Shown: one piece after another, positions 1 to 51,600 of the stretch
Position numbering within the stretch: the stretch's first letter is position 1
Layout: every line of letters starts with the position of its first letter
Notes under the pieces: model-generated
What the model saw: only the letters and a program-made list of their open reading frames with translations
What the model was told of the DNA's origin: nothing
The model's database searches: none
Made by a program: the position numbers and the translations under genes
Assembly (NCBI GenBank): GCA_029717555.1
Contig: JAMDHS010000021.1
Span: 1 to 64,000 of the forward strand
Direction: 5' to 3'
Length of the DNA: 64,000 nt
DNA from: Peribolospora baueri
Lineage: Eukaryota

Positions 1-587
1 TGATCGTTGTGCTTACATGAGCTCGAAGAGATGGAAAGCCCACTCACTGGAGAGAAGCGCTTCTCGTGCCTGCTTGTTCCTTAGAGCGACCTTATGGACG
101 TTTTCTGCGTGCAATTTCTGTTGAAGAGGTCAGCGCGATGAAACGTGCTGCATCTCGACGCCATATAAGAAGAGACAAGGCGACCAGACGCTTACGTCTG
201 CGACCGGCGTGAAAGAAAAAAAAGACAAACCAGAGCAAGTCAGAGTGGAGCCCTTGCCTTGAAAGGCCAGCTGGTCGCACTCACAGTTTTGCTTGAAGCA
301 CTCCTGAGAACAGAAGAACGAGTCCTTCACGTCGAGCCTGCAGCGACGAGTAGCGTGGCAGAGGGCAGACCTGATGAGCAGGTCTGCACGTCAAGAGGAT
401 GAGGTCCGAAGCGCTCGACGAAGCGCTACCTTTCGCGGCTATTGGAACCCGCTCACTCTTTGCACTTGGGACACTCCAGCCTCGTCGCCGGCTTCCCGCA
501 TCCTTCACTCTTACATATCCGCTCAGCGGGAGTCGCAGGAGTTTTGACCTCGGGGACGGTTGAAGATGATTCGCTGGGTGTCGTCAT
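1..587 (-). CDS. MAP1: Methionine aminopeptidase 1, N-terminal zinc-finger exons (gene continues beyond window start)
   Basis: Exons 587-457, 337-285, 197-196 (2 nt) and 117-48 splice to MTTPSE...CKSEGCGKPATRLECPKCKELDVKDSFFCSQECFKQNYKLHAENVHK. This is the C6H2 zinc finger typical of MetAP1. All introns are GT-AG. Confidence 0.85.
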
Positions 588-1838: not shown

Positions 1839-4045
1839 TCAGACAAGGCCGTTATACATCTGCCACGGCCAGCCGCCCGCGTTCGCGTCCAGCGCGCCGA
1901 GCAGAGGCACGTTGTGAAGGCGAGGAGCCCCCGGATGAGCGGGAACGTCTTCGCGTGCTGCTACGGAGATATCCACTCCGCCGCTTTGCGTTGCAGCGTT
2001 CCCCATCCCTGCGATGGCGGCGGACGCGGCGGCAAAATCCTCGGGCGTGTGCTGGAAGAGCGACGATGGATGATGCTCGTGCTGCTCGCGTGCGTGCTGC
2101 CGTCGCGGTTGCTGCTGCTGCTGCTGGAAGAGCGATGACGGATGGTGCTCGTGCTGTTGCTGCTGCTGATGGAAGAGCGATGACGGCTGCTCTTGTGTAA
2201 GCTGCCGACGCTGCTGATGGTGATGCTGGTGCTGGAACTGCTCCGAGTCGGCACCTTGGACGGGAGGATAGAAGGCGAACGGAGCGGCTTGTTGGGTGGC
2301 GGCTTGGTCACAAGGCATCGTGGTCAGGCCGAGCGCGCCCCCGTTCGGGATCTCCGGAGTCGAGGTGCTCTGTCTACGACCTTGAGATCCTACGCCATGG
2401 AAGCTGGCTGAGCGCAGAGGAGGAGGAGGCTGACTCAATGACGAAGCATCGACTCCCATGGCCTGGGCAAAACCTCTCTTCTTGCTCTTGGACTGTGGAG
2501 GGCTCAGGTCGCTGTCGTAGCCTTCCAGAGTGTTCCCGCTGCACACCGTAAGCGTGATGGGCCATCCGCTCTCCTCGCCCTCGCCGAGCTCGTCCGGCGC
2601 CTTGTATCGTCCTTGCTGACGAAGACGTTCCTCTTCCCGCGCCACGCGGTAGATGTCCTTGAGAAGTCCAACTCTGCTTGATGGGATGAAGGCCGCCACT
2701 TCGGCAGTAGCCAGTTCAAGACGGGCGATTTGGACGCGGGGAGAGCGGAGGATGGTCATCAACAGGTTAATGCGTTCTGGTGCACGGAAAAGAAGAGCAA
2801 AGTTTCAGCTTTCTTGTACATCCGCTAGGGCAACGAATCCGTCTCAAAGAGCCAACGGCAACGGATTCGCTCACCTGGTTTCATCAAATGGTCCGGCTCC
2901 TTGTGTCGCACGTCCTTGGGCCACCATTCAGGCTTTCCCTCCTCACCCCGGTTGTAAGGGCACCTGGTCTGCTTCTTGGGCTCGATGACCTTGATCCACG
3001 CCTTGGCCACGATCTTGCAGCACAGCTGCTGCAATTGTTTGAACTTGGTTTCGAGGAACGCTGTGCTCTCCGCGGGAGACGCGAGGGTCACCGTGGCCGG
3101 CAGAGGGACAGGGGAATCGACGACAGTGGGAGAGGGCGTGGGAAGGGAGACGGAGTGGGGAGGAAGAGAGATAGGTGAAGGAAGAGATGACGAGCCCATC
3201 GAAAGGGGAGCTGAGAACAGTGGCTTGCCGCCGAAAGGGTCGTCGGGCCCGCCGATCCCAAAACCGCTGAAACGGTCGCTCAAGCCGGTCGTGGGCAGGC
3301 CGGTCGTGGGCAGGCCGGTCGCCTGGCAGGCGAATCCGTCCACATCGCGGAAGGGTGTGCCGAGCACGGACGCGTCGCTTGTGCCCGCCGTGGTGGCCGT
3401 ATCGAGCGGCGGCAAGCCGCCGCCGTCGCCGCCACGCTGGTTATGGTAGAGTGCATTGGCGACGTTTGGATCGATGGGAGTTATCCCAGCGGCCTTTCTA
3501 CGGTGCGCGAGTTTGCGACCGTTGGCCTTGCTGGTGACCTTGGTCGAGGACGGACGACGTTGGGATGAGACCGAAGCGGAAGACGAGGAAGTACTGCGCT
3601 TCGAGGGAGGCGCAGAAACTCCGCCGAACGGACCATCGAACGTGTCGGCACGCACGATCTGCTCGTCGTCGATGGCAGACACGGCGTCATCGTCGTCGTC
3701 GAGATCGGGATCGTCAGCGGCCGGGTCTGCGTCGCCGTCTTCGAGCGCCTTGCGAAGCGCAGCGTCAGTGTTGCCGGCCTTCTTCTCCCTGTCTCTTCTC
3801 ACCACCTCACGCGCCTGCTCGGTTGTGTGGTGATCGAACCACTCGCCGAGAACGCTTTGCAGGGCATCAGATGCATACGTCTCCACCTCTCCGCGGGCGC
3901 TGACCCAGAGGATGGCAAAGTGGGAGCCGTTGATGTAAGCGGCCTTGCCGAGTGCTCGGAGGATCTGATCACGCTTGTTCTTGAAATGACGATGCTGTCG
4001 CGACGGGGACGAGTACGGCTCTATCCGTACGGGGATACGAGGCAT
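1839..4045 (-). CDS. DUF2841 (YDR124W-like) domain protein with N-terminal MADS-box-like segment; putative transcription factor
   Basis: ATG at 4045; exons 4045-2875 and 2776-1839. It contains [60 protein letters not shown], the DUF2841 signature, and a Q/H-rich C-terminus. Confidence 0.85.
2052..2192. repeat. Coding imperfect tandem repeat (3 copies of PSSLF-type units with Q/H tracts)
   Basis: Three copies of ggaagagcga(c/t)ga(t/c)gg separated by (gct)n runs, inside the DUF2841 gene. Confidence 0.8.
3284..3329. repeat. 15-bp coding tandem repeat (TGLPT units)
   Basis: gccggtcgtgggcag twice exactly, plus a third degenerate copy. Confidence 0.85.
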
Positions 4046-5206
4046 GATGGAGAGGTCGACCGTCGCAGACGGTGAATGTATGCGAGTCTGAGACTGACGG
4101 GTGGGGCACAGGTGGAAAGCAGGGTGGGAGAGACTGTAGACCGTGGCTCGGACGGCGCGCTCGTCGGTACGTCGATGAGGAAGGATATGGCGTGGTCCGA
4201 TGGACGAGATGTCTCTCCTGTAGCACCGTGAAGGACAAAGAGGGTTCAGAAGATGGACGGCAACGCTCGTTCGAGGCACGGTGGACGAGAGGGACTGTTT
4301 CGTCCCGCACCTGAGGGCAGCTGGCGAAAGGACGAGGTAACACGAAAGAGGAGACGATAGGTCGACGAGAACGAGGCGGACTTGACGGCTGACGATGGCG
4401 TGCCGGACGGTGCACAGCGTGTGGGTGGGTGATAGGTGGATGGTATCGAAGGACTGCCGTAGAATGCCTGCGAGGCGGAGAAGAGAGAAAGGACACGAGT
4501 GATGGGTCAGGGCGATTGAAGGTGGAGGGACCGTCGGATGAGCGATCGTCGGATGAGAGCGTCGGCCGGGGAGAGATGAACGATGGGCGAGGGAGAGGTG
4601 AATGAGATGGGAGAGGAAGGGTGAGCGCCTGGTTAAGAGAGATGCGACGAGGTCGACCTGTGGGATGGGTCGTCGCGTTCCCTTCCGAATTCCTGGCCTC
4701 GACGTGTTGGGCCGACCAAGGAGGCATGTCAGCAGGCTCGTCGAGCTGGATCGAAAGCGCGCGTTTTGGAAGTTGAACGGGAGCGAGCGCGAAGAAAGTG
4801 GCGGTGGAGGAGAGAATGTCGACGACCGATCGACATTGGCCCGCGGAACGAAACGCTGTATGATGACCCGAGGGGTGATCGAACGGGTGGGGGGAATGGT
4901 GCGGGGCAACGAAAGAGAGAAGGCCGAGGGCTGTGCTGTGCGGCGGTCGTGCCAGTTCGCTGGTGGGCGTGCAATCCAGCCATCCTGGATATGATATGTC
5001 TATCGCCATCGGCTCGTATGTCGATCCCGTGCCAGCCGACGAGCGTGATCAGCGCTGGAGATGGAATGAAGATGAGACAGCCGCCGGCAGCCAGGTGAGT
5101 ACGTAAGCCGGTCGGTCGGGTTAGCCAGCCAGCCTGATGATGATGACAAGAGGAGGCCGGCCTGCGGGGTCGGGGGGTCGCTGGATGCGATCCAGTGCGG
5201 CGACGA

Positions 5207-21928: not shown

Positions 21929-23493
21929 CTAGAAGCCAGCCAAGAATCGGCCCAACAAGCCCACGAACTTGTCACCGGCATCCAGCATGGGCAAATGTCC
22001 GCTCCCTTCCACGGCCTCGAACGTCGCCTGGCCGCCCTCGGCACGGATCTGCTTGGCGAGCTTTCCGAGCGTCTCGGGCAATTTGCCATCCTTCTTGCCG
22101 GCGATGAGCATGACTTTCTTCTGCTTGAGCGCCGCGACGAGGCCGGCCGAGAGGAGGTCATAGTCCTGCAACGCTCTCGCCCCGCGCTCGAAGCCGTCTA
22201 CCGAGGTATTCTCGATCATGTCCAGTACCACTTTGCCGCACTTGCCCTCAGCCCGGTAATCGCTTCCCTCTGGGAACCAGCGCGAGGCAGTCGCACGCGC
22301 CAGGGCGGGCATGCCATCCTTGCGAGCCAGCGCGATCCGCTCATCCCACGCCGCCTTGTTCGCAGCCGGAGACGCAGGCTGCGTGTCGCACGCGACCACA
22401 GCGTCGCACCGATCCGAGTGACGAAGACCGAAGGCGAGCGCCGTCGCCCCTCCCTGAGACACGCCCACGACGGCTTTGAGCTTCTTGACTCCGAGATGAT
22501 CGAGGAGGATAGCGAGATCATCAGCGAGCTGAGCAATGGTGCAAGGCTCTGCAGGGATGGAAGAGCGACCGTGTCCGCGCTGGTCGTAGACGATCAGGTT
22601 GTACGACTCGCGCAGGGCCGCGAAGGTGGTACGCCAGAGGGAGAGGTCGGTGAGTAGGCTGTTCACAAACGCCAGCCAGGGTTTGTCCGCTCCCGCTACC
22701 GAGATCTGGGCATAGAGTGTTACATCGGCTTTGACGGAGCCCGGAGAAGGAACAGGGACGTAGACGGGGTTGACGGCCGGCTGAGGTAGGAACACCCTAG
22801 CTTTGTCGTCCACGTCAAGAGCGACGAGGAAGCGAGAGACCATGTTGTAGCATGCCACAGTGCTCGTCGCCTCCACCATCTGCTGCTCCACTCCTGCTCC
22901 CTCGTACCCAGCCCTCTTGGCGCTCGACCCGGCCCGCTGAAACTCTTGTTTGAGCTGGTCAAACACCGCATCGGGCACCTTGATCTCCTTCGTCATGGTA
23001 TCTGCAAAGGCTAGCGCTGCTGACTGTAGCGGCGAGAGGGGCTCGGTGGACGCGGAGGAGAGCGGAGAGAGAGGGGTGCGGGTCACATCACCGATCACCG
23101 CCAGCTGGGGGACGGTGAGGCCACCGGCACGCCCGACGTGCTCGTGGTGCTCCCATTCAAAGGTCGCAGAGTTGTGTGCGGCCACGCGAAGGATCTGTCG
23201 GGGTTACCAGTGAAGGAACCAGTCAGACGAGCAGCCGGTCCGTCAGTACGCCCGCTACACGCAGCGCTCGACGATGAGAGACTTACCAGAAGCTCACGGA
23301 GGTCGTCAGTCAAAGAGGTCTTTGTGCGAATGGAGCCCAACAAGCTGTTCCACCCATCAGCGACGGAGGAGGCGTGGAGAAGGGTGCCGTCCAACGGGGT
23401 GATGTCCCTCCCGGAAGCGGCCCTACGCTCGCGGATCCTGTCAGCCACGGCGTCTTCTCCCTTGGGAGGGATGCGGTAGGGGAAACGGGGCAT
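21929..23493 (-). CDS. Fusion of N-terminal AhpD/carboxymuconolactone decarboxylase-like domain and C-terminal 3-oxoadipate enol-lactonase-like alpha/beta hydrolase
   Basis: Exons 23493-23287 and 23194-21929. The N-half has LRELLILRVAAHNSATFEWEHH and VACYNMVSRFLVAL. The C-half has NSLLTDLSLW, YDQRGHGRS, GVSQGG (nucleophile elbow) and GSGHLP. Confidence 0.88.
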
Positions 23494-24870: not shown

Positions 24871-25590
24871 AATTGAGGTCCTCCCGTTCTTCGACCCCTT
24901 CTCTCCTTCACTTCATCGCGCAAAACTGTCTTGGTTCAAGGCGTTCTCCCGTCTTGCGAGTACACCATACATCTCTTGTTTCGTGGAGCCGGATTCTGCA
25001 AATCCCCACGGCATCAGAGGGTGCCGCCGACGATCAAAACGTCTGCATTGTTGTCCGCACCGCCAAACAAGTCGTCGTTCTGCTTCTTATTTCCTTCTCC
25101 GGGCTTATCCTACCCCAGTTCGCGCCCGCTCTCCCCGTCGTCCGCCCCCCCTTCTCACAGTCCAATCAGCTCTCCACCACTGTATAACTCCGGCACGATC
25201 CACCCTTCCGCGTTCAAGCTCCACATCGAGCGATGCACTTCTCCGAGGACCTTGTTCATCTTTGTCGACATACCCTGTTTTAGTACTTATCCAGCTTGCG
25301 CTCTGGCAAACTGAGTGATCGAACGCAATCCGTGTGCTTTCTCATACAAGGATGATTCGAAGCTCGCACGTGGAAGACTGATAAATGCCAGCCATCACGA
25401 GTGTAAGCATCCGGGGATCGGGAGAGGTCGGTCAAAAGCTCCACATCAACTCCTGCGACGTTCCTCTTCCTCTTCTCTCCGACTCGGCGTCGGTGCGCGT
25501 GCTTGGGTGCGCCTTGTCCTCTTCGTCTTCAAACGTCTCCCTGGCCGCCGACGATCGACGTCCAGCTCGAGACGTATCCCGCTACCGCAG

Positions 25591-26391
25591 ATGTCATCGG
25601 GCTCCAAACCTCCCCCCTCTGGACCCTCTTGGTCCCTGACGAGCTCCCTGCAACGGTCCATCCGCCGCCTCTCTCACTTCCTCCATGTCCGGCTCACCCA
25701 GAATGTTCAACCCCGCCGCGCCGATGTTCAACTGATCGCCTTCGCTTTCTCCACCGGCATGATCGACGCTTTCACCTTTGCCGACATGCAAGTTTTTACG
25801 GCCAACATGACCGGCAACACTGTCTTCCTCGCTCTCGCGGCCGCCTCGGCAGGCGATCGGAACCTGGTCCACGCTGATAGGAGCATCTTGGCGTTGGCCT
25901 GCTTTTGGACGGGGGCGTTTGTGGGAGGACAGATCGGACATCGCGTGGGGCCAAGGAAGAGGTGGTGGTTGCTTCTCAGCTCCCTCATGCAGTCCTTGCT
26001 GCTCCTCGTCTCCGCCATCCTGCTCTACACCCGCGCCTCACGGCCATCAGCAGGCGAGAGCGACGAGTCGGGCATCCTGGGCTTGATCGTGCCCCTCGCG
26101 TTCTCCTTTGGCGCCCAAGCAGCTCTTGCCCGAGGACTCACCATCAACGAGATCCCCACCGTCGTCATCACGTCCGCCTTCGCTGACATTTTCGCCGACA
26201 AGAACCTTTTCCACGCTAATAATCTGGGAAGAAATCGAAGGATGGCGTTCGTCATCACCCTCTTCTTGGGAGCGTTCGTGGGCAGCTGGGTGCTCAAGGA
26301 GGTACACGGAAGCTTGGTGGTGCTTTTGGCGTTCGTGGTCAAGACGGTGGCCGCGACTAGCTTTTGGCTCAATCCTGGGGATGAACCATGA
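25591..26391 (+). CDS. DUF1275/YoaK-family membrane protein
   Basis: Single exon with FSTGMIDAFTF...VFTANMTGNTVFL, FGAQ, IPTVVITSAFAD and NRRMAF, plus several TM helices. Confidence 0.88.
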   Translation: MSSGSKPPPSGPSWSLTSSLQRSIRRLSHFLHVRLTQNVQPRRADVQLIAFAFSTGMIDAFTFADMQVFTANMTGNTVFLALAAASAGDRNLVHADRSILALACFWTGAFVGGQIGHRVGPRKRWWLLLSSLMQSLLLLVSAILLYTRASRPSAGESDESGILGLIVPLAFSFGAQAALARGLTINEIPTVVITSAFADIFADKNLFHANNLGRNRRMAFVITLFLGAFVGSWVLKEVHGSLVVLLAFVVKTVAATSFWLNPGDEP

Positions 26392-28059: not shown

Positions 28060-29877
28060 TCACCGCACTCTATTGAGCACCTTGTCCGTCAACTGCTCCA
28101 ACGCCACTCTCGCCTCAGACTCAGGGAGGATCTGCAGCGCCTCTCGTGCGAACGAGGCATGCTGAGAGGCCAGTTCGGCGGTGCGTGAGAGCCCCGTTGA
28201 TCGCGAGACGAGGTCGCGCGCCTGGAAGTGAAAATGAGCGAGGTACACAGAGGGCCAAGAGGACGGCATGAGATGGGAGAAGATGAACGGAGGTCGTGAG
28301 CGAGCGAGTCGCCATTAATCACCGTCACCATTGTAACCAATATAGGACGTCGCGATGCAGACTTACCCTCTCAACGTCCCCTTCGCCGGAAAACTTTCTA
28401 GAGATCATCTCTCCCATCTCCGGGTACTCCTCCCACGCATAAAGGGCGGGAGCAGTGGCAAGCCCTAGTCTCAGGTCGGCGCCTTGAGAAGGCTTGCCAA
28501 AGGAAGTGCTCGTGACGGAAAAGTCGAGGAGATCGTCAACGAGCTGACCATGCGATGACAAAGATTGTCAGCCAAAGAAAAATAGAAGAAACCGTCACGC
28601 GATGGGAAAAAAGCCTGAGCGGGTTAAGTGCACGTTACAAGCTCCGTGCTCACCTGAAACGCAATGCCAAGATTCCGACCGTATCCATACGCCGCATCCT
28701 TGACTTTCTCGCCATCCTCCCACCCTTGCCTGAGACCACAGCCACCCAAGATGGCAGCCGCCCTGGCAGATTTCCCTATCAAGCTGGCCGTCTTCAGGTA
28801 CGTCTTCTGCATGTAGTGTTCAAAGATCTCCCTCGTGGGCCCGCTCCTATTAGCGCCCTCCGATCCCGCCTCCCTGGTACCGTTCCAGAACGTGGCAAAA
28901 GAGCTCCGGTTCGGTTTAGGGTTAGCAGACGCCTTAAGTTGCATCACCTCCCCCTCAACGAGATTGGCGATCACTGTTGCCAACAGTTCCACCACCTCGT
29001 TGCTCCCCAGTCGACTCAGCGCGACGGACGCCCGGCCGAGGAGGAAGTCGCCACCGAGGATGGAAAGCTTGTTCCCGAACGCGGCAGGGGCCGAAGGTTG
29101 GCCTCTCCGTTGTTCAGAGGCATCAATCACGTCGTCGTGAAGTAGCGAGGCCACGTGGATCATCTCTGTGATCTCGGCGAGACGCCGCTGGGTGGGCAAG
29201 ATCGGGGTTTGGGAATTGAGGAGTGAGGATGAAGAGGATGAGGAATCGGCGGCGGAGAGTCGTAATCGTCGTCGCTCCTCATCGTGAGGGTTGTAATCGT
29301 TGAGGACGTCCGCAGGGCTCAGGGACTCGTCTACGCCGCCGCCCCATTCATCGCCCGTTCCACTACGTCCCATCGCATATCCGTCATCCACCGCTCTGCT
29401 TCCACTCCTCAATACCTCCTGCCACTGTGGACTGATACCATTGATAGCCTGGCTGATGAGAAGCACAATCAGCGGCCGAATTTGCTTGCCCTCCGCATGG
29501 AAATAGTACTTTGCGATCGTGTCCAGAGAAGGGTGGCCGGAGCCAAGGAGGGAGCGCACGTTGTCTCGGAGAGAGGAAAGCTCCTTGCCGACAAGCTTGA
29601 GGGGGTCGATAGCACCAAACGAAGATGAGGAAGAGGAAACTTGGCCAGAGACTACGGAAGACGCTGCCTTGACGGCTGCCGCCCAGCCCGAGCTGTGTCG
29701 CTTGAAGACGCTGGTGGACGCCGCCTTGGCCGGGTGAGCACAAGGACGAGAAGCAAGTGCCGCCGCGGAAGACGGATAGGCCGGCCGTCTTCCAGGTGCC
29801 CTAGAGGCAGACGACAGGGCAAATCCAATGCCACTGACGGCACTGGCGTGAAGACGACCGGAGGAGGCGGCCGCCAT
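28060..29877 (-). CDS. COQ1: Polyprenyl (hexa/decaprenyl) diphosphate synthase, mitochondrial
   Basis: GKQIRP, EMIHVASLLHDDVID (FARM), GDFLL, LVEGEVMQ, KTASL, GIAFQ|LVDDLLD (SARM), DLRLGLATAP; three exons. Confidence 0.95.
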
Positions 29878-30603
29878 GGTGCTCGTCGTGGTGGACTCGC
29901 GAGCGATGTGAGCGGTTCAGGTCTTCCGTCTATCGTCCTTCGCAGTGATCGGACCGATTCTTCTCGCGCGCTCCGAGTACCGCAGCCTGGAACGAGTCGC
30001 ACAAGCCGGAGCAGATCCCTTATGTCATTTGCTCACGTGACCTTTTTGTTCCCATCTCTTAAATATAAGGTCACTGGACATCATTCCGTCAGTCGGCAAG
30101 CGTTTAGAACGAGCATCGACTGGCTTGCATGCTGTGCTGGGAAGCTTCGCTTTCATGTCGGGCTTGCGTCCTTATCAGACCGGCGTCCTATGCTTGCATT
30201 GTGCACGGTACCAGCTGACCTCATAGGGCGCTCGACTGAAGAGGGCCCGGCTCCGCCCTTGCTCGGGTATTCTAATTTAGGAAGGCCTGGTCAGGGCTCC
30301 TCCACCTCTCCTACCGGTCTTCGGTCGCTGTTACCTGTTCTCGCACCCGCTCTTCCTCGTCATGGAGTTGATGCTCGCTCACGTTTTTCGATTTTCGTGA
30401 AGAAGACGCATCTCGCTGCCTTGAGCTCGAGTTACAGTAGGCCCGGTCGCGCTCCCGGTCAATAACGCTCGCCGTCGAAGAGGTGAGTCCCTGTCCTCAA
30501 AGAATTGGCACACATATTGAGTCGACTCGAACTGCGTTGATGAGCGTCTTCATGACTGGCCAAGGTCACTTCGCCTCTTCCCGCCCCAAGGCCGCACGCG
30601 CCC

Positions 30604-48672: not shown

Positions 48673-51600
48673 CTAGCACGTCTGCCACCCTTCTTGCGTC
48701 AGCCGTTGCTTCGGCCACGGTCGTCCGAACTGCAGGCGCGTTGTGGAAAAGACGAAAGAAAAAAAAAAATTTGGGTCAGGATGTCATCATCAGGGGGACC
48801 CGCCCCGTAACCACTCACGCCTCCCGTCGCCGCCTCGCCCTGCCAGAAGGTGATGTTCGGGTTGTTGTACACCTCCGAATACTGTGTGCCCCGACGACGA
48901 AGCCGAAGCGAGTGAGCAGAACGAAGATGCAAACAAACCGTCGCCTCGGTTTACCTTGTTGATCCAGTCCTTCGTCGGGAAACCTTTAGGATCGCAGCCC
49001 CAGTTGATCGCGTTTTTCGGTTGGTACACTCGGACTGTGCGAGTTCGAACCGACCGATCACCGACCGACGGAGGAGCGAATGAACGGTCAGATCACCAGT
49101 CAACGAACGCCACCATCGTCCCACCACGTCTTCCTTCACTCACTGTAGTCGACCTTCATATGCACCGGGAACGTGAGTTTGGCCCAGCTGACGAACGACA
49201 AAGTTCCGATTTCCATCAGCAAAAACCGCCAAGACCAACGATCTCATATCCATCTACGCGCCATGGGCAGACGGGACCAAGCAAGACTCACTTGGCCGGT
49301 TGAAAGCCGTGTGACATGCCGAGGTTGAACATGATGTACTGGAAGCCCGGTCAAGCCGGTCGCACCCCCACCGGTTCGTCAGCATAAAAAAAAAAAAAAA
49401 AAAGGCGAGGTGGGCTGAAACAAGGCTCACCATGGGCTCCTGAGGGACCGGACGAGCGCTGATGCCGACACGAGCGTCAGCGTCCAGGGCCGCCGAGGTG
49501 ACCCTCCACGACTGTTGACCGTTGTTCTGTCGAAAGGAGAGCGAGCGACCGTCATTCAGTCAAACCGCCGCGATCATGACCCGCTCCGAAACTTCAACAT
49601 CCACTCGCACCCGCTCCCGCCCCCACTCACCAGCCACGTGATGTACCCATTCAAACCAGGCTCGTACTCCACTCCATATCTCGCAAACATCTGGTCCGTC
49701 AGCTGGTAGGCAGAGTTGTTCGCCGGCGCCGTCCCGGATATGGCTTGTTGAAGTGCCGAACCGGTGTACGAGTTCATTTGGGCACCCGGTTGGAGAAATT
49801 CGTAGGCTCCAGGAGTGTTGAGAATGGTGTAGTTCCTGTTGAACGGAGCGAGCCTGAAAGGGGCATCAAGGGTAGTGACGGCGCAAGGAGCACGTCAGCC
49901 CCGGGTTGACACGGATGAGGGGCGAGCGCCTGCCATCGGTCACTCACTGAAGCGACTGAGAGAGAGCGCCGCCGGTCGTCGCGAACGCTTGTGCTTCGAA
50001 AACTGTTTCGAGTTGCCGGGGGAGAGCAGAGGGTGAGTATATGAAACGCCACGCAAGTCGAGACCGGGACAGGGTGAGGCCGGCTCACCGTCAATCTCGG
50101 GCGCGCTCCTGCCAACAAACGTCCCGTCCGGGTTTGTTGGCCCAGGATGGTCCTCGCCGGGGCAGGTGCAAGCAGAGAGCCTTTGTCCGGGCAGATTGCT
50201 GAGAATGGTGCCGTACTGGCCGATGAGCTGCGCGTCGGCGGGAGTCTTGTTGGCGAAGGATTGGTTGGGGAGGACGCCGACGTCGCAGCTGTCGTACGAA
50301 TACGGCCAGAGACCCTGTGGGAGAAGAAAAGCGAAGAGAACGGGGATCGGTCGGTCGGGAGAAAGTGAGGGAGGAGGAGGAGGACAGTCCTCTTACTCAC
50401 GTCTGTCGTCGCACCGTATCCAGCCCTGCCGAGCTGATTTTCAACGCGGGACAGGGGACGTGTGAGCAGGGCGAGACGAGAGAGTCGTAGGTAGCAACGT
50501 AGTACTCACGTTGCCCATCGCCCAGAAAGCGGGCCACAATCCGGAGACGTAGGGGCTGCCGGGCAGTTGGATGGCAGCCCTGAACGAAGAAAGCAAGGCG
50601 AGGTCGAGGTCATGACATGGTCCCCAACAACAAACACGAACCGGTCGGAGCGAATCACGAGCTGACTCACTCCATGTAGCCACCGGTGAAGCAAAACTTG
50701 TTCCAGCTTTGGAGCATGCCGGATTTGAAGTTGAGGTCGTGGCCTTGGCGCTCGTCCATGGTGATGACGAGCGATCCGTTGGAGGTGGTGATCTGGTCGG
50801 GTGTGTACCACTCCGCGTCTTGCGTCGCCCAGTAGTAAAAGTCTGGCGCCTCCCAGTAGGGGTCGTCGCCTGGGTAGAAGGATCGGCCATCGGTGTTGAA
50901 CTCGTCGCTGTAGAGGCGGATGAGGGTCACGACGCGAGACGAGATGGACAGGACAAACGGGAGTGAGCACGGGCGACGTAACGCGTGGACAGATGACAAA
51001 AGATATAGCTCACCTGAAAACAAGCTGGTATTGGGTTTTTCCATCGCTGGAGATTGCAAGATGGCCGACCAGGTAAGAAGCGGTCGAGGCGGATCGCCAA
51101 ACAACATAAAAAGAGACAGACGAGCGGACTCACAAGCCAGTGCGGGTGTACGCTTCTTTTGGGGTGTCACGGTCGACGAGGTCGAACATGTTTGGAACGT
51201 CGGGGACCTGGCCGGTGGAGTTTGCGATCTGTTGATCACGGTGGGCGGGCGAGCGGGTCAGTGAGAGGGTATGAAGGAGGAAGAAAATAGGACACCGTTT
51301 TTTCTTCTCACCAGGCTCGAGTCATGTGAAGTCCTGAAATAGCTCAGGATGGGGTATCCTGCGAAGAGCTGGAGAGGAAGAGATGGGGATGGAAAGGCAG
51401 AGGCATGAACGACGAGAAGGTGGGGCGACTGGGAGGAGGATGGACGACGTGGATTTATGTGCGCACCATGATCAAGCCGCAGCCGAGGATGAGGAGGGAG
51501 CCGAGGTTCATCAACCCCCTGGCGGTGAAGACGGAGCCATTGTCGTCCTTGCCGTCCCTGAGGGCGCGGTCGTCGTCGTCGTCGTCGGGCCCGCTGGTGC

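Follow-up and report, generated by a model that had tools for sequence, protein, structure and literature searches.

Does the gene that opens the window depend on an internal exon of only two nucleotides? The window, which is the whole stretch of 64,000 nucleotides analyzed here, carries the 5' end of a minus-strand gene within its first 600 bases, with the ATG at 587. A sequence-only reading had pointed to the string CAG|AC|GTAAGC at 200-190 of the minus strand, where the acceptor CAG ends at 198 and the donor G follows at 195, and had proposed that the AC between them is an exon inside a MAP1 zinc finger. We re-read this region on the minus strand and found the coordinates and splice motifs to be correct throughout. 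The resulting layout of the first 587 positions was as follows.

457-587, minus strand: coding part of exon 1, with the N-terminal tail and the first half of the finger (C-x4-C ... C-P-K-C)
338-456, minus strand: intron A, 119 nt, GTGAGC...CTGCAG, phase 2, donor G at 456
285-337, minus strand: exon 2, 53 nt, ...FFCSQECFKQN plus a T that is base 1 of the next codon
198-284, minus strand: intron B, 87 nt, with GTGAGT, CTGAC at 243-239, a T-rich tract at 229-211 and CAG
196-197, minus strand: candidate 2-nt micro-exon AC, bases 2 and 3 of a Tyr codon T|AC
118-195, minus strand: intron C, 78 nt, with a GTAAGC donor, CTGAC at 133-129 and a CAACAG acceptor ending at 118
48-117, minus strand: next exon, 70 nt, starting AAA TTG CAC (K-L-H-A-E-N-V-H-K...) and ending in phase 1
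1-47, minus strand: start of the following intron, GTGAGT at 47; the gene continues past the window edge

The 3' end of exon 2 reads ...TGC TTC AAG CAA AAC T, and the GTGAGT donor starts at 284. Both His ligands are carried by the exon at 48-117, with x4 spacing between them.

A probable MetAP1-type zinc finger split over several exons

In yeast, the zinc finger of Map1 is needed for normal function in vivo and for ribosome association. That the exons of this gene code for a MetAP1-type zf-C6H2 finger was supported by Pfam profile matches and by alignment of exon 2 to human MetAP1. The Pfam zf-C6H2 profile (PF15801) matched exon 1 at profile positions 1-19 (E 8e-4, 19.9 bits) and exon 2 at profile positions 18-38 (18.6 bits), the second match adjoining the first. 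Searched as separate exons, both matches lie below the Pfam cut-off of 30 bits. In the PDB, exon 2 aligned to four sequences of human MetAP1, in the region of the finger; the entries compared for yeast Map1 and human MetAP1 were 8bqd/8bqx, 4iu6, 8p2k and 7sek. Neither exon 1 (44 aa) nor the exon-2 ORF (86 aa) had a match at E <=10 among the longer proteins of a library of 5.8 billion sequences, because the exons are too short for a library of this size and close annotated relatives are missing. We infer the identity as MAP1 from the finger, which is the only part read here for comparison with the yeast and human enzymes; the aminopeptidase (M24A) domain would lie beyond the window.

To compare the finger endings, the PDB was searched with the N-terminus of a cDNA-like MAP1 from a metagenome contig (L011), and three fingers were aligned column by column. 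Yeast Map1 (8bqd_x) reads ...C-Y-E-N-N-Y-K-A-H-K-A-L-H, human MetAP1 ...C-F-K-G-S-W-A-T-H-K-L-L-H and L011 ...C-F-K-K-N-W-A-T-H-K-N-T-H. With AC included, the window reads ...C-F-K-Q-N-Y-K-L-H-A-E-N-V-H. The Tyr formed by T+AC thereby stands on the aromatic column, where yeast Map1 has Tyr and both human MetAP1 and L011 have Trp, and the first His follows 7 residues past the last Cys in all four sequences. The yeast motif N-Y-K-A-H named in the sequence-only reading does match PDB chain 8bqd_x. Further likeness was seen in the Cys pattern, which is the same in the window, yeast Map1 and human MetAP1, in the FCSQECFK core, which is identical to the human one, and in the aromatic residue two positions after K. 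In contrast to both proteins, the residue after the first His of the window is Ala and not Lys.

The L011 contig (1546 nt) is an intronless, cDNA-like MAP1. A frame shift occurs near 1100, beyond which the end of the catalytic domain is read in a different frame. This is probably an assembly error in the record.

The comparison was widened by a scan of metagenome sequences with the pattern C-S/T-Q-E/D-C-F-K-x-N followed by TGK, which gave at least 118 loci. The pattern required TGK after the Asn codon and thus placed Tyr-coding relatives outside its reach. Among the matches listed, 114 loci were informative; two of the others were not MAP1 and two were cut off. The acceptor search demanded x-x-H-x3/4-H, so that the His spacing is partly built in for the intron-bearing loci, but not for the 28 intronless ones. 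The Cys-x7-His spacing was kept in all 114 informative relatives among the matches listed. The claim that AC completes the C6H2 finger therefore holds for the six Cys, the two His and the C-x7-H spacing, all of which are present, but does not extend to the His pair. This is H-x4-H in the window, the second His standing 4 residues after the first and not 3, as compared with H-x3-H in yeast, human and 114/114 informative relatives among the matches listed. The altered spacing could mean relaxed constraint.

Reading frame and splice signals around the AC dinucleotide

In-silico joining gave the frames that had been predicted for the two forms. A direct join of 285 to 117 yields Asn and then TAA, and this skipped form would be a 60-codon ORF and perhaps an NMD target. 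Inclusion of AC yields T+AC = TAC (Tyr), and the frame remains open to position 48. All splice paths of one or two introns, each at least 40 nt long and bounded by GT or GC and by AG, were enumerated. This resulted in 5223 stop-free combinations, and eight of them had GTRAGY-like donors and YAG acceptors. Only one of these eight strong-site paths, intron B followed by AC and intron C, preserves Cys-x7-His and the finger ending. Acceptors at 148 and 105 were tried after the 284 donor and rejected, since stops result. Paths over weak sites that retain the downstream frame were also rejected, the finger spacing being broken in all of them.

The exon had been called obligatory for any functional protein. 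This is too strong, because intron B has a length of 3n without an in-frame stop, and its retention together with removal of intron C stays in frame. What stands is that the AC exon would be required for the normal finger.

Retention of intron B leads directly to a different gene structure, in which only intron C (195-118) is removed, 284-198 is coding and exon 2 extends over 337-196. The 87 nt are a multiple of three and stop-free, and the product is in frame, with 29 additional, unrelated residues placed after the last Cys and before the first His. By our own estimate, a 3n segment is stop-free by chance in about 8% of cases, and little weight can thus be placed on the open frame. Consensus donor, branch site, U-tract and acceptor are all present in the segment, and its translation matches nothing, the Pfam and PDB matches stopping at ...CFKQN. 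It would also break the Cys-x7-His spacing described above for 114/114 informative relatives among the matches listed. We consider this structure very unlikely as the main form of the gene. Retention of intron B may occur as a minor isoform, and the model with intron C only may be the choice of an automatic gene finder.

Both introns next to AC were then judged on their own signals. Donors of the GTRAGY type and CTGAC branch sites are present in both B and C, and both introns end at the first AG past the branch; each is complete alone, with donor, branch site, acceptor and a viable length. Donors were judged by consensus matching, because all relatives have TGG on the exon side, which makes a donor weight matrix built from them useless. 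The branch A of intron C is at 130, 12 nt from the 3' end. The branch A of intron B is at 240, 42 nt from the 3' end, and the U-tract bridges the gap. This distance is rather far and counts against the exon.

Intron lengths were addressed by a crude screen over the whole window. Intron-like candidates of 70-120 nt numbered 21, compared with about 7 expected from block shuffles, and at 140-220 nt there was no excess over shuffles within the window. The screen favours introns of 87 and 78 nt over one intron of 167 nt (284-118).

How often an acceptor and a donor meet at this distance by chance was estimated with the pattern YAGNNGTRAGY. Counting both strands of the 64-kb window (128 kb), 5 sites were found, where shuffles predict 2.64; 15 of 100 shuffles gave 5 or more, and the rate is about 2-4e-5 per position. 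The four other sites in the window were considered as micro-exons and rejected as ordinary exon-donor junctions. Between the 284 donor and the 118 acceptor, 76 positions are admissible when both flanking introns are at least 45 nt long. The chance of finding the pattern within them is ~0.002 by our own arithmetic from the shuffle rates, and rises to roughly 0.01-0.02 when exons of any 3n+2 length up to about 20 nt are allowed. No similar copies of introns A-D were seen within the 64 kb, nor did these introns resemble one another, and the idea of an introner or repeat was rejected.

Taken with the frame and the finger, these signals suggest that AC (197-196, minus strand) is probably a real internal exon of two nucleotides that is used constitutively. 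Introns B (284-198) and C (195-118) would be ordinary short introns of the U2 type, each recognised by intron definition. Their consecutive removal would leave T+AC = TAC between exon 2 and the exon at 117, and the mRNA would encode ...C-F-K-Q-N-Y-K-L-H..., the last part of the MetAP1-type zf-C6H2 finger. That the spliceosome uses both splice-site pairs is what we infer from the sequence. Removal is expected to be sequential, as for stwintrons and in recursive splicing, because U1 on the intron C donor would overlap the intron B acceptor AG, and either order would leave intact signals for the second step. Since recognition in fungi works across the intron, exon definition should be no obstacle to an exon of 2 nt. 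We also considered recursive splicing at a zero-nucleotide exon and rejected it, as two bases part AG and GT and are needed in the mRNA.

The exon might also serve as a switch. If skipping of AC (285 to 117) were regulated, the TAA transcript would be degraded by NMD and levels of MetAP1 would be tuned in this way. The skipped join does give an immediate TAA. Fungi splice mainly by intron definition, however, and exon skipping is uncommon in them. In addition, intron B supplies the first branch site and AG that could be used downstream of the 284 donor, and this speaks for inclusion. A conserved regulatory element did not turn up, and folding of the 201 nt at 300-100 was no better than that of shuffles (z -0.19). 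A precedent is the functional microexon switch of Trichoderma Xlr2, as described in the accessible part of that report (PMC11121469). We hold regulated skipping to be very unlikely, about as much so as coding use of intron B, and what chance it has overlaps with that of the constitutive exon.

Relatives, intron positions and the history of the site

Several genes were identified elsewhere in the window, and the affiliation of the genome was approached through one of them, the alpha/beta-hydrolase.

2825-4999, minus strand: ORF of 724 aa with a YDR124W-like helical bundle domain (PF11001, E 9.5e-30)
21932-23203, minus strand: alpha/beta-hydrolase, an ordinary gene, called 3-oxoadipate enol-lactone hydrolase in some sources; PF02627 is also present in most of its homologues
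25315-26388, plus strand: DUF1275 protein, an ordinary gene
28627-29916, minus strand: polyprenyl synthetase, an ordinary gene

The best named matches of the alpha/beta-hydrolase ORF came from Jaminaea, Violaceomyces, Ustilago, Thecaphora and other Ustilaginomycotina. Identities were 41-51%, with other Basidiomycota at a similar level, and a 100% match to this ORF was not present in the protein library, from which the proteins of the window thus appear to be missing. By these matches the genome reads as that of a basidiomycete, and it is probably allied to the smut lineage, without close annotated relatives. Genes of Basidiomycota are intron-rich.

Two further observations were made on the minus strand. 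At 1840-5000, a repeat region rich in Gln and His closes the gene that lies upstream of the MetAP1-like one. At about 50300-50600, a small exon of 33 nt lies between two GTGAGT introns, and one flanking exon reads ...PAFWAMGN; this gene may resemble those for KRE6/SKN1-type GH16 glucan synthesis proteins.

The metagenome relatives were analyzed for introns at the finger site. Among the matches listed, 86 of the 118 loci (79 distinct) have a Trp codon directly followed by a phase-0 intron and then x-x-H-K/R-x-x-H, and 28 loci have no intron there. Intron length at this site ranged from 45 to 238 nt, with a median of 62 nt, and only one of 73 distinct introns reaches 150 nt or more (238 nt), again among the matches listed. 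The micro-exon layout was found in none of the 114 informative loci among the matches listed, all of which have an intact TGG with one intron or none. The relatives are distant, DNA similarity being confined to exon 2 with at most 91% identity over 35 nt. Intron C lies at the phase-0 position right after the aromatic codon, which is the position seen in 86/118 loci among the matches listed. Intron C is probably old, because this position is common to many relatives. Intron B, two bases upstream, had no counterpart in the relatives among the matches listed, and was probably gained or shifted 2 nt upstream of intron C.

Intron A was compared in the same set. In-silico removal of intron A restores the CxxC-x10-C spacing of the finger. 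The stretch from the CxxC to the pattern match is contiguous in 112 of the 118 loci among the matches listed, with no intron at this point, and intron A appears private to the window relative to the relatives sampled. It splits the finger between C-P-K-C-K-E and L-D-V-K.... Its branch-site candidate is weak: the sole YTRAY match, TTGAC, lies 53 nt upstream of the acceptor needed, and an earlier AG at 384 comes after TTGAC and before the acceptor in use.

The intact TGG of the relatives suggests another history for the site. Two bases may have been lost from a Trp codon (TGG|GT to T|GT), as a pseudogene lesion or an assembly error, so that 284-118 would be one intron of 167 nt. The copy would then be a decaying or redundant MetAP1-like gene and the internal CAG-AC-GTAAGC a coincidence. 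In line with this, AAY TGG|GT stands at the same point in 86/118 relatives among the matches listed. One of the metagenome loci, L063, reads AACTGG|GTGAGTGCG where the window reads AACT|GTGAGTGCG; the next nine bases are shared, which makes for a simple alternative history. The H-x4-H spacing, which deviates from 114/114 informative relatives among the matches listed, points in the same direction, and long introns do occur, as in the relative with 238 nt at the site. However, the loss would need a coincidence of ~0.2% (1-2% with looser criteria), that is, a strong acceptor and a strong donor two bases apart. The same coincidence would have to split the span into two introns of typical length, each with CTGAC, and the two bases would have to happen to code for an aromatic residue. 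Moreover, the six Cys and the two His are all intact, and so is every other splice signal. An error-ridden assembly is argued against by long ORFs with complete Pfam domains elsewhere in the window, and loss of two G from a run of three is an atypical sequencing error. We therefore regard a two-base lesion or error as unlikely.

The two readings differ in a short string. At the exon 2 donor (in 300-100) the window reads AACTGTGAGT, and the TGG-intact counterpart at 285 is AACTGGGTGAGT. If an intact AACTGGGTGAGT were present, 284-118 would be a single phase-0 intron and the micro-exon finding would fall. With an intact TGG, the strong internal acceptor-donor pair would presumably be a harmful decoy.

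For a constitutive AC exon, two histories can be drawn. A new intron B would have been gained two bases upstream of the old intron C, or the Trp codon would have lost GG (compare L063) and the internal cryptic pair would have been recruited. Two strings of intron B recur in L063, GTGAGTGCG at the donor and, in the branch region, TGACTTGCT. Unless this is chance, it hints that the conserved intron is homologous to intron B and not to intron C.

The sequence around AC has some structure of its own. At 180-205 on the minus strand, a 26-nt block, GGTCGC-AGACG-TAAG-CGTCT-GGTCGC, holds the acceptor AG, the exon AC and the donor. It consists of a 6-nt direct repeat around a 5+4+5 palindrome and forms a 6-bp hairpin (-8.4 kcal/mol). 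The ends of intron B are complementary, TGCGACC (279-273) with GGTCGCA (205-199), and a match of 7 nt or more was seen in 0.76% of interior shuffles. On the same strand, GCGACCAG (272-279) is complementary to CTGGTCGC (180-187) near the start of intron C, with a match of 8 nt or more in 0.12% of shuffles. Such pairing of intron ends might help to define a tiny exon. A small insertion that gave rise to both splice sites could have left the block as its footprint; the block was noticed post hoc and its significance is uncertain.

Known tiny exons and the place of the candidate AC exon

Internal exons of this size have been described in another basidiomycete. In the available part of the report on a long-read annotation of Coprinopsis cinerea, 13 internal exons of 1 nt, 57 of 2 nt and 27 of 3 nt are given, the 2-nt exons being found in 50 genes, and omitting exons of <=3 nt creates premature stops in 63 of 89 gene models (PMC12230235). 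Like the AC exon, these exons are flanked by ordinary introns and were missed by standard annotation, as far as that text goes; they rest on long-read cDNA, whereas the AC exon rests on sequence logic (PMC12230235). A keyword search of the literature for a microexon in a fungal methionine aminopeptidase found no report.

A second fungal case is the 1-nt exon in the CYP621A P450 genes of Fusarium (Nelson and Syed 2026; PMC12940212, parts of which were available). Shared with the window are out-of-phase exons in a conserved motif, an apparent intron that is too long, and an AG-N-GT of good consensus (PMC12940212). Nelson and Syed propose, in the same parts, that a base was lost at an exon edge and a cryptic exon was recruited, and this scenario fits the TGG-to-T comparison made here (PMC12940212). 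In contrast to the window, the CYP621A exon has 1 nt instead of 2, and it is conserved in 20 or more orthologues and was checked against an intronless paralogue and SRA reads (PMC12940212). Exons of 2-5 bp in Arabidopsis, Drosophila and humans are cited in that source as well. The ultra-short exon of Arabidopsis APC11 is constitutive and keeps the frame, as proposed for AC; according to the portion of the report at hand, this plant exon differs from AC in having 1 nt and in being experimentally verified (PMC4674806).

Fungal stwintrons are similar to the window in that two U2 introns are in contact and are removed consecutively. In the excerpts available of three reports, the outer intron has its donor, branch site or acceptor interrupted by the inner one, the mRNA keeps nothing between them, and the origin is thought to be insertion of an intron at or next to an existing splice site (PMC5639578, PMC12403724, PMC5587772). 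Introns B and C are unlike this arrangement, since each carries a complete and intact set of signals and two bases are left between them as an exon. A stwintron was thus rejected for the window.

The AC exon may also be seen as one product of a lineage-wide creation or insertion of introns beside existing splice sites, in a deep-branching basidiomycete related to the smuts. Nested twin introns, 0-nt back-to-back introns and exons of 1 and 2 nt would then form a graded series. The 180-205 block and the complementary ends of intron B would fit the footprint of a small insertion or transposon that provided a splice-site pair in one step. We regard this wider scenario as unlikely, slightly more so than the loss of two bases.

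Exons of <=3 nt are already established, including in fungi, and the AC exon adds one more candidate case; it reveals no new mechanism. If the AC exon is real, an essential gene of the housekeeping type, encoding an enzyme that removes Met co-translationally, depends on an exon of two bases. Standard gene finders would truncate the protein at the stop or add 29 foreign residues to the zinc finger. An example from a smut-related basidiomycete would join the short list of exons of <=3 nt. The intron beside the AC exon occupies a widely common and probably old position, and the case would therefore bear on the origin of tiny exons.
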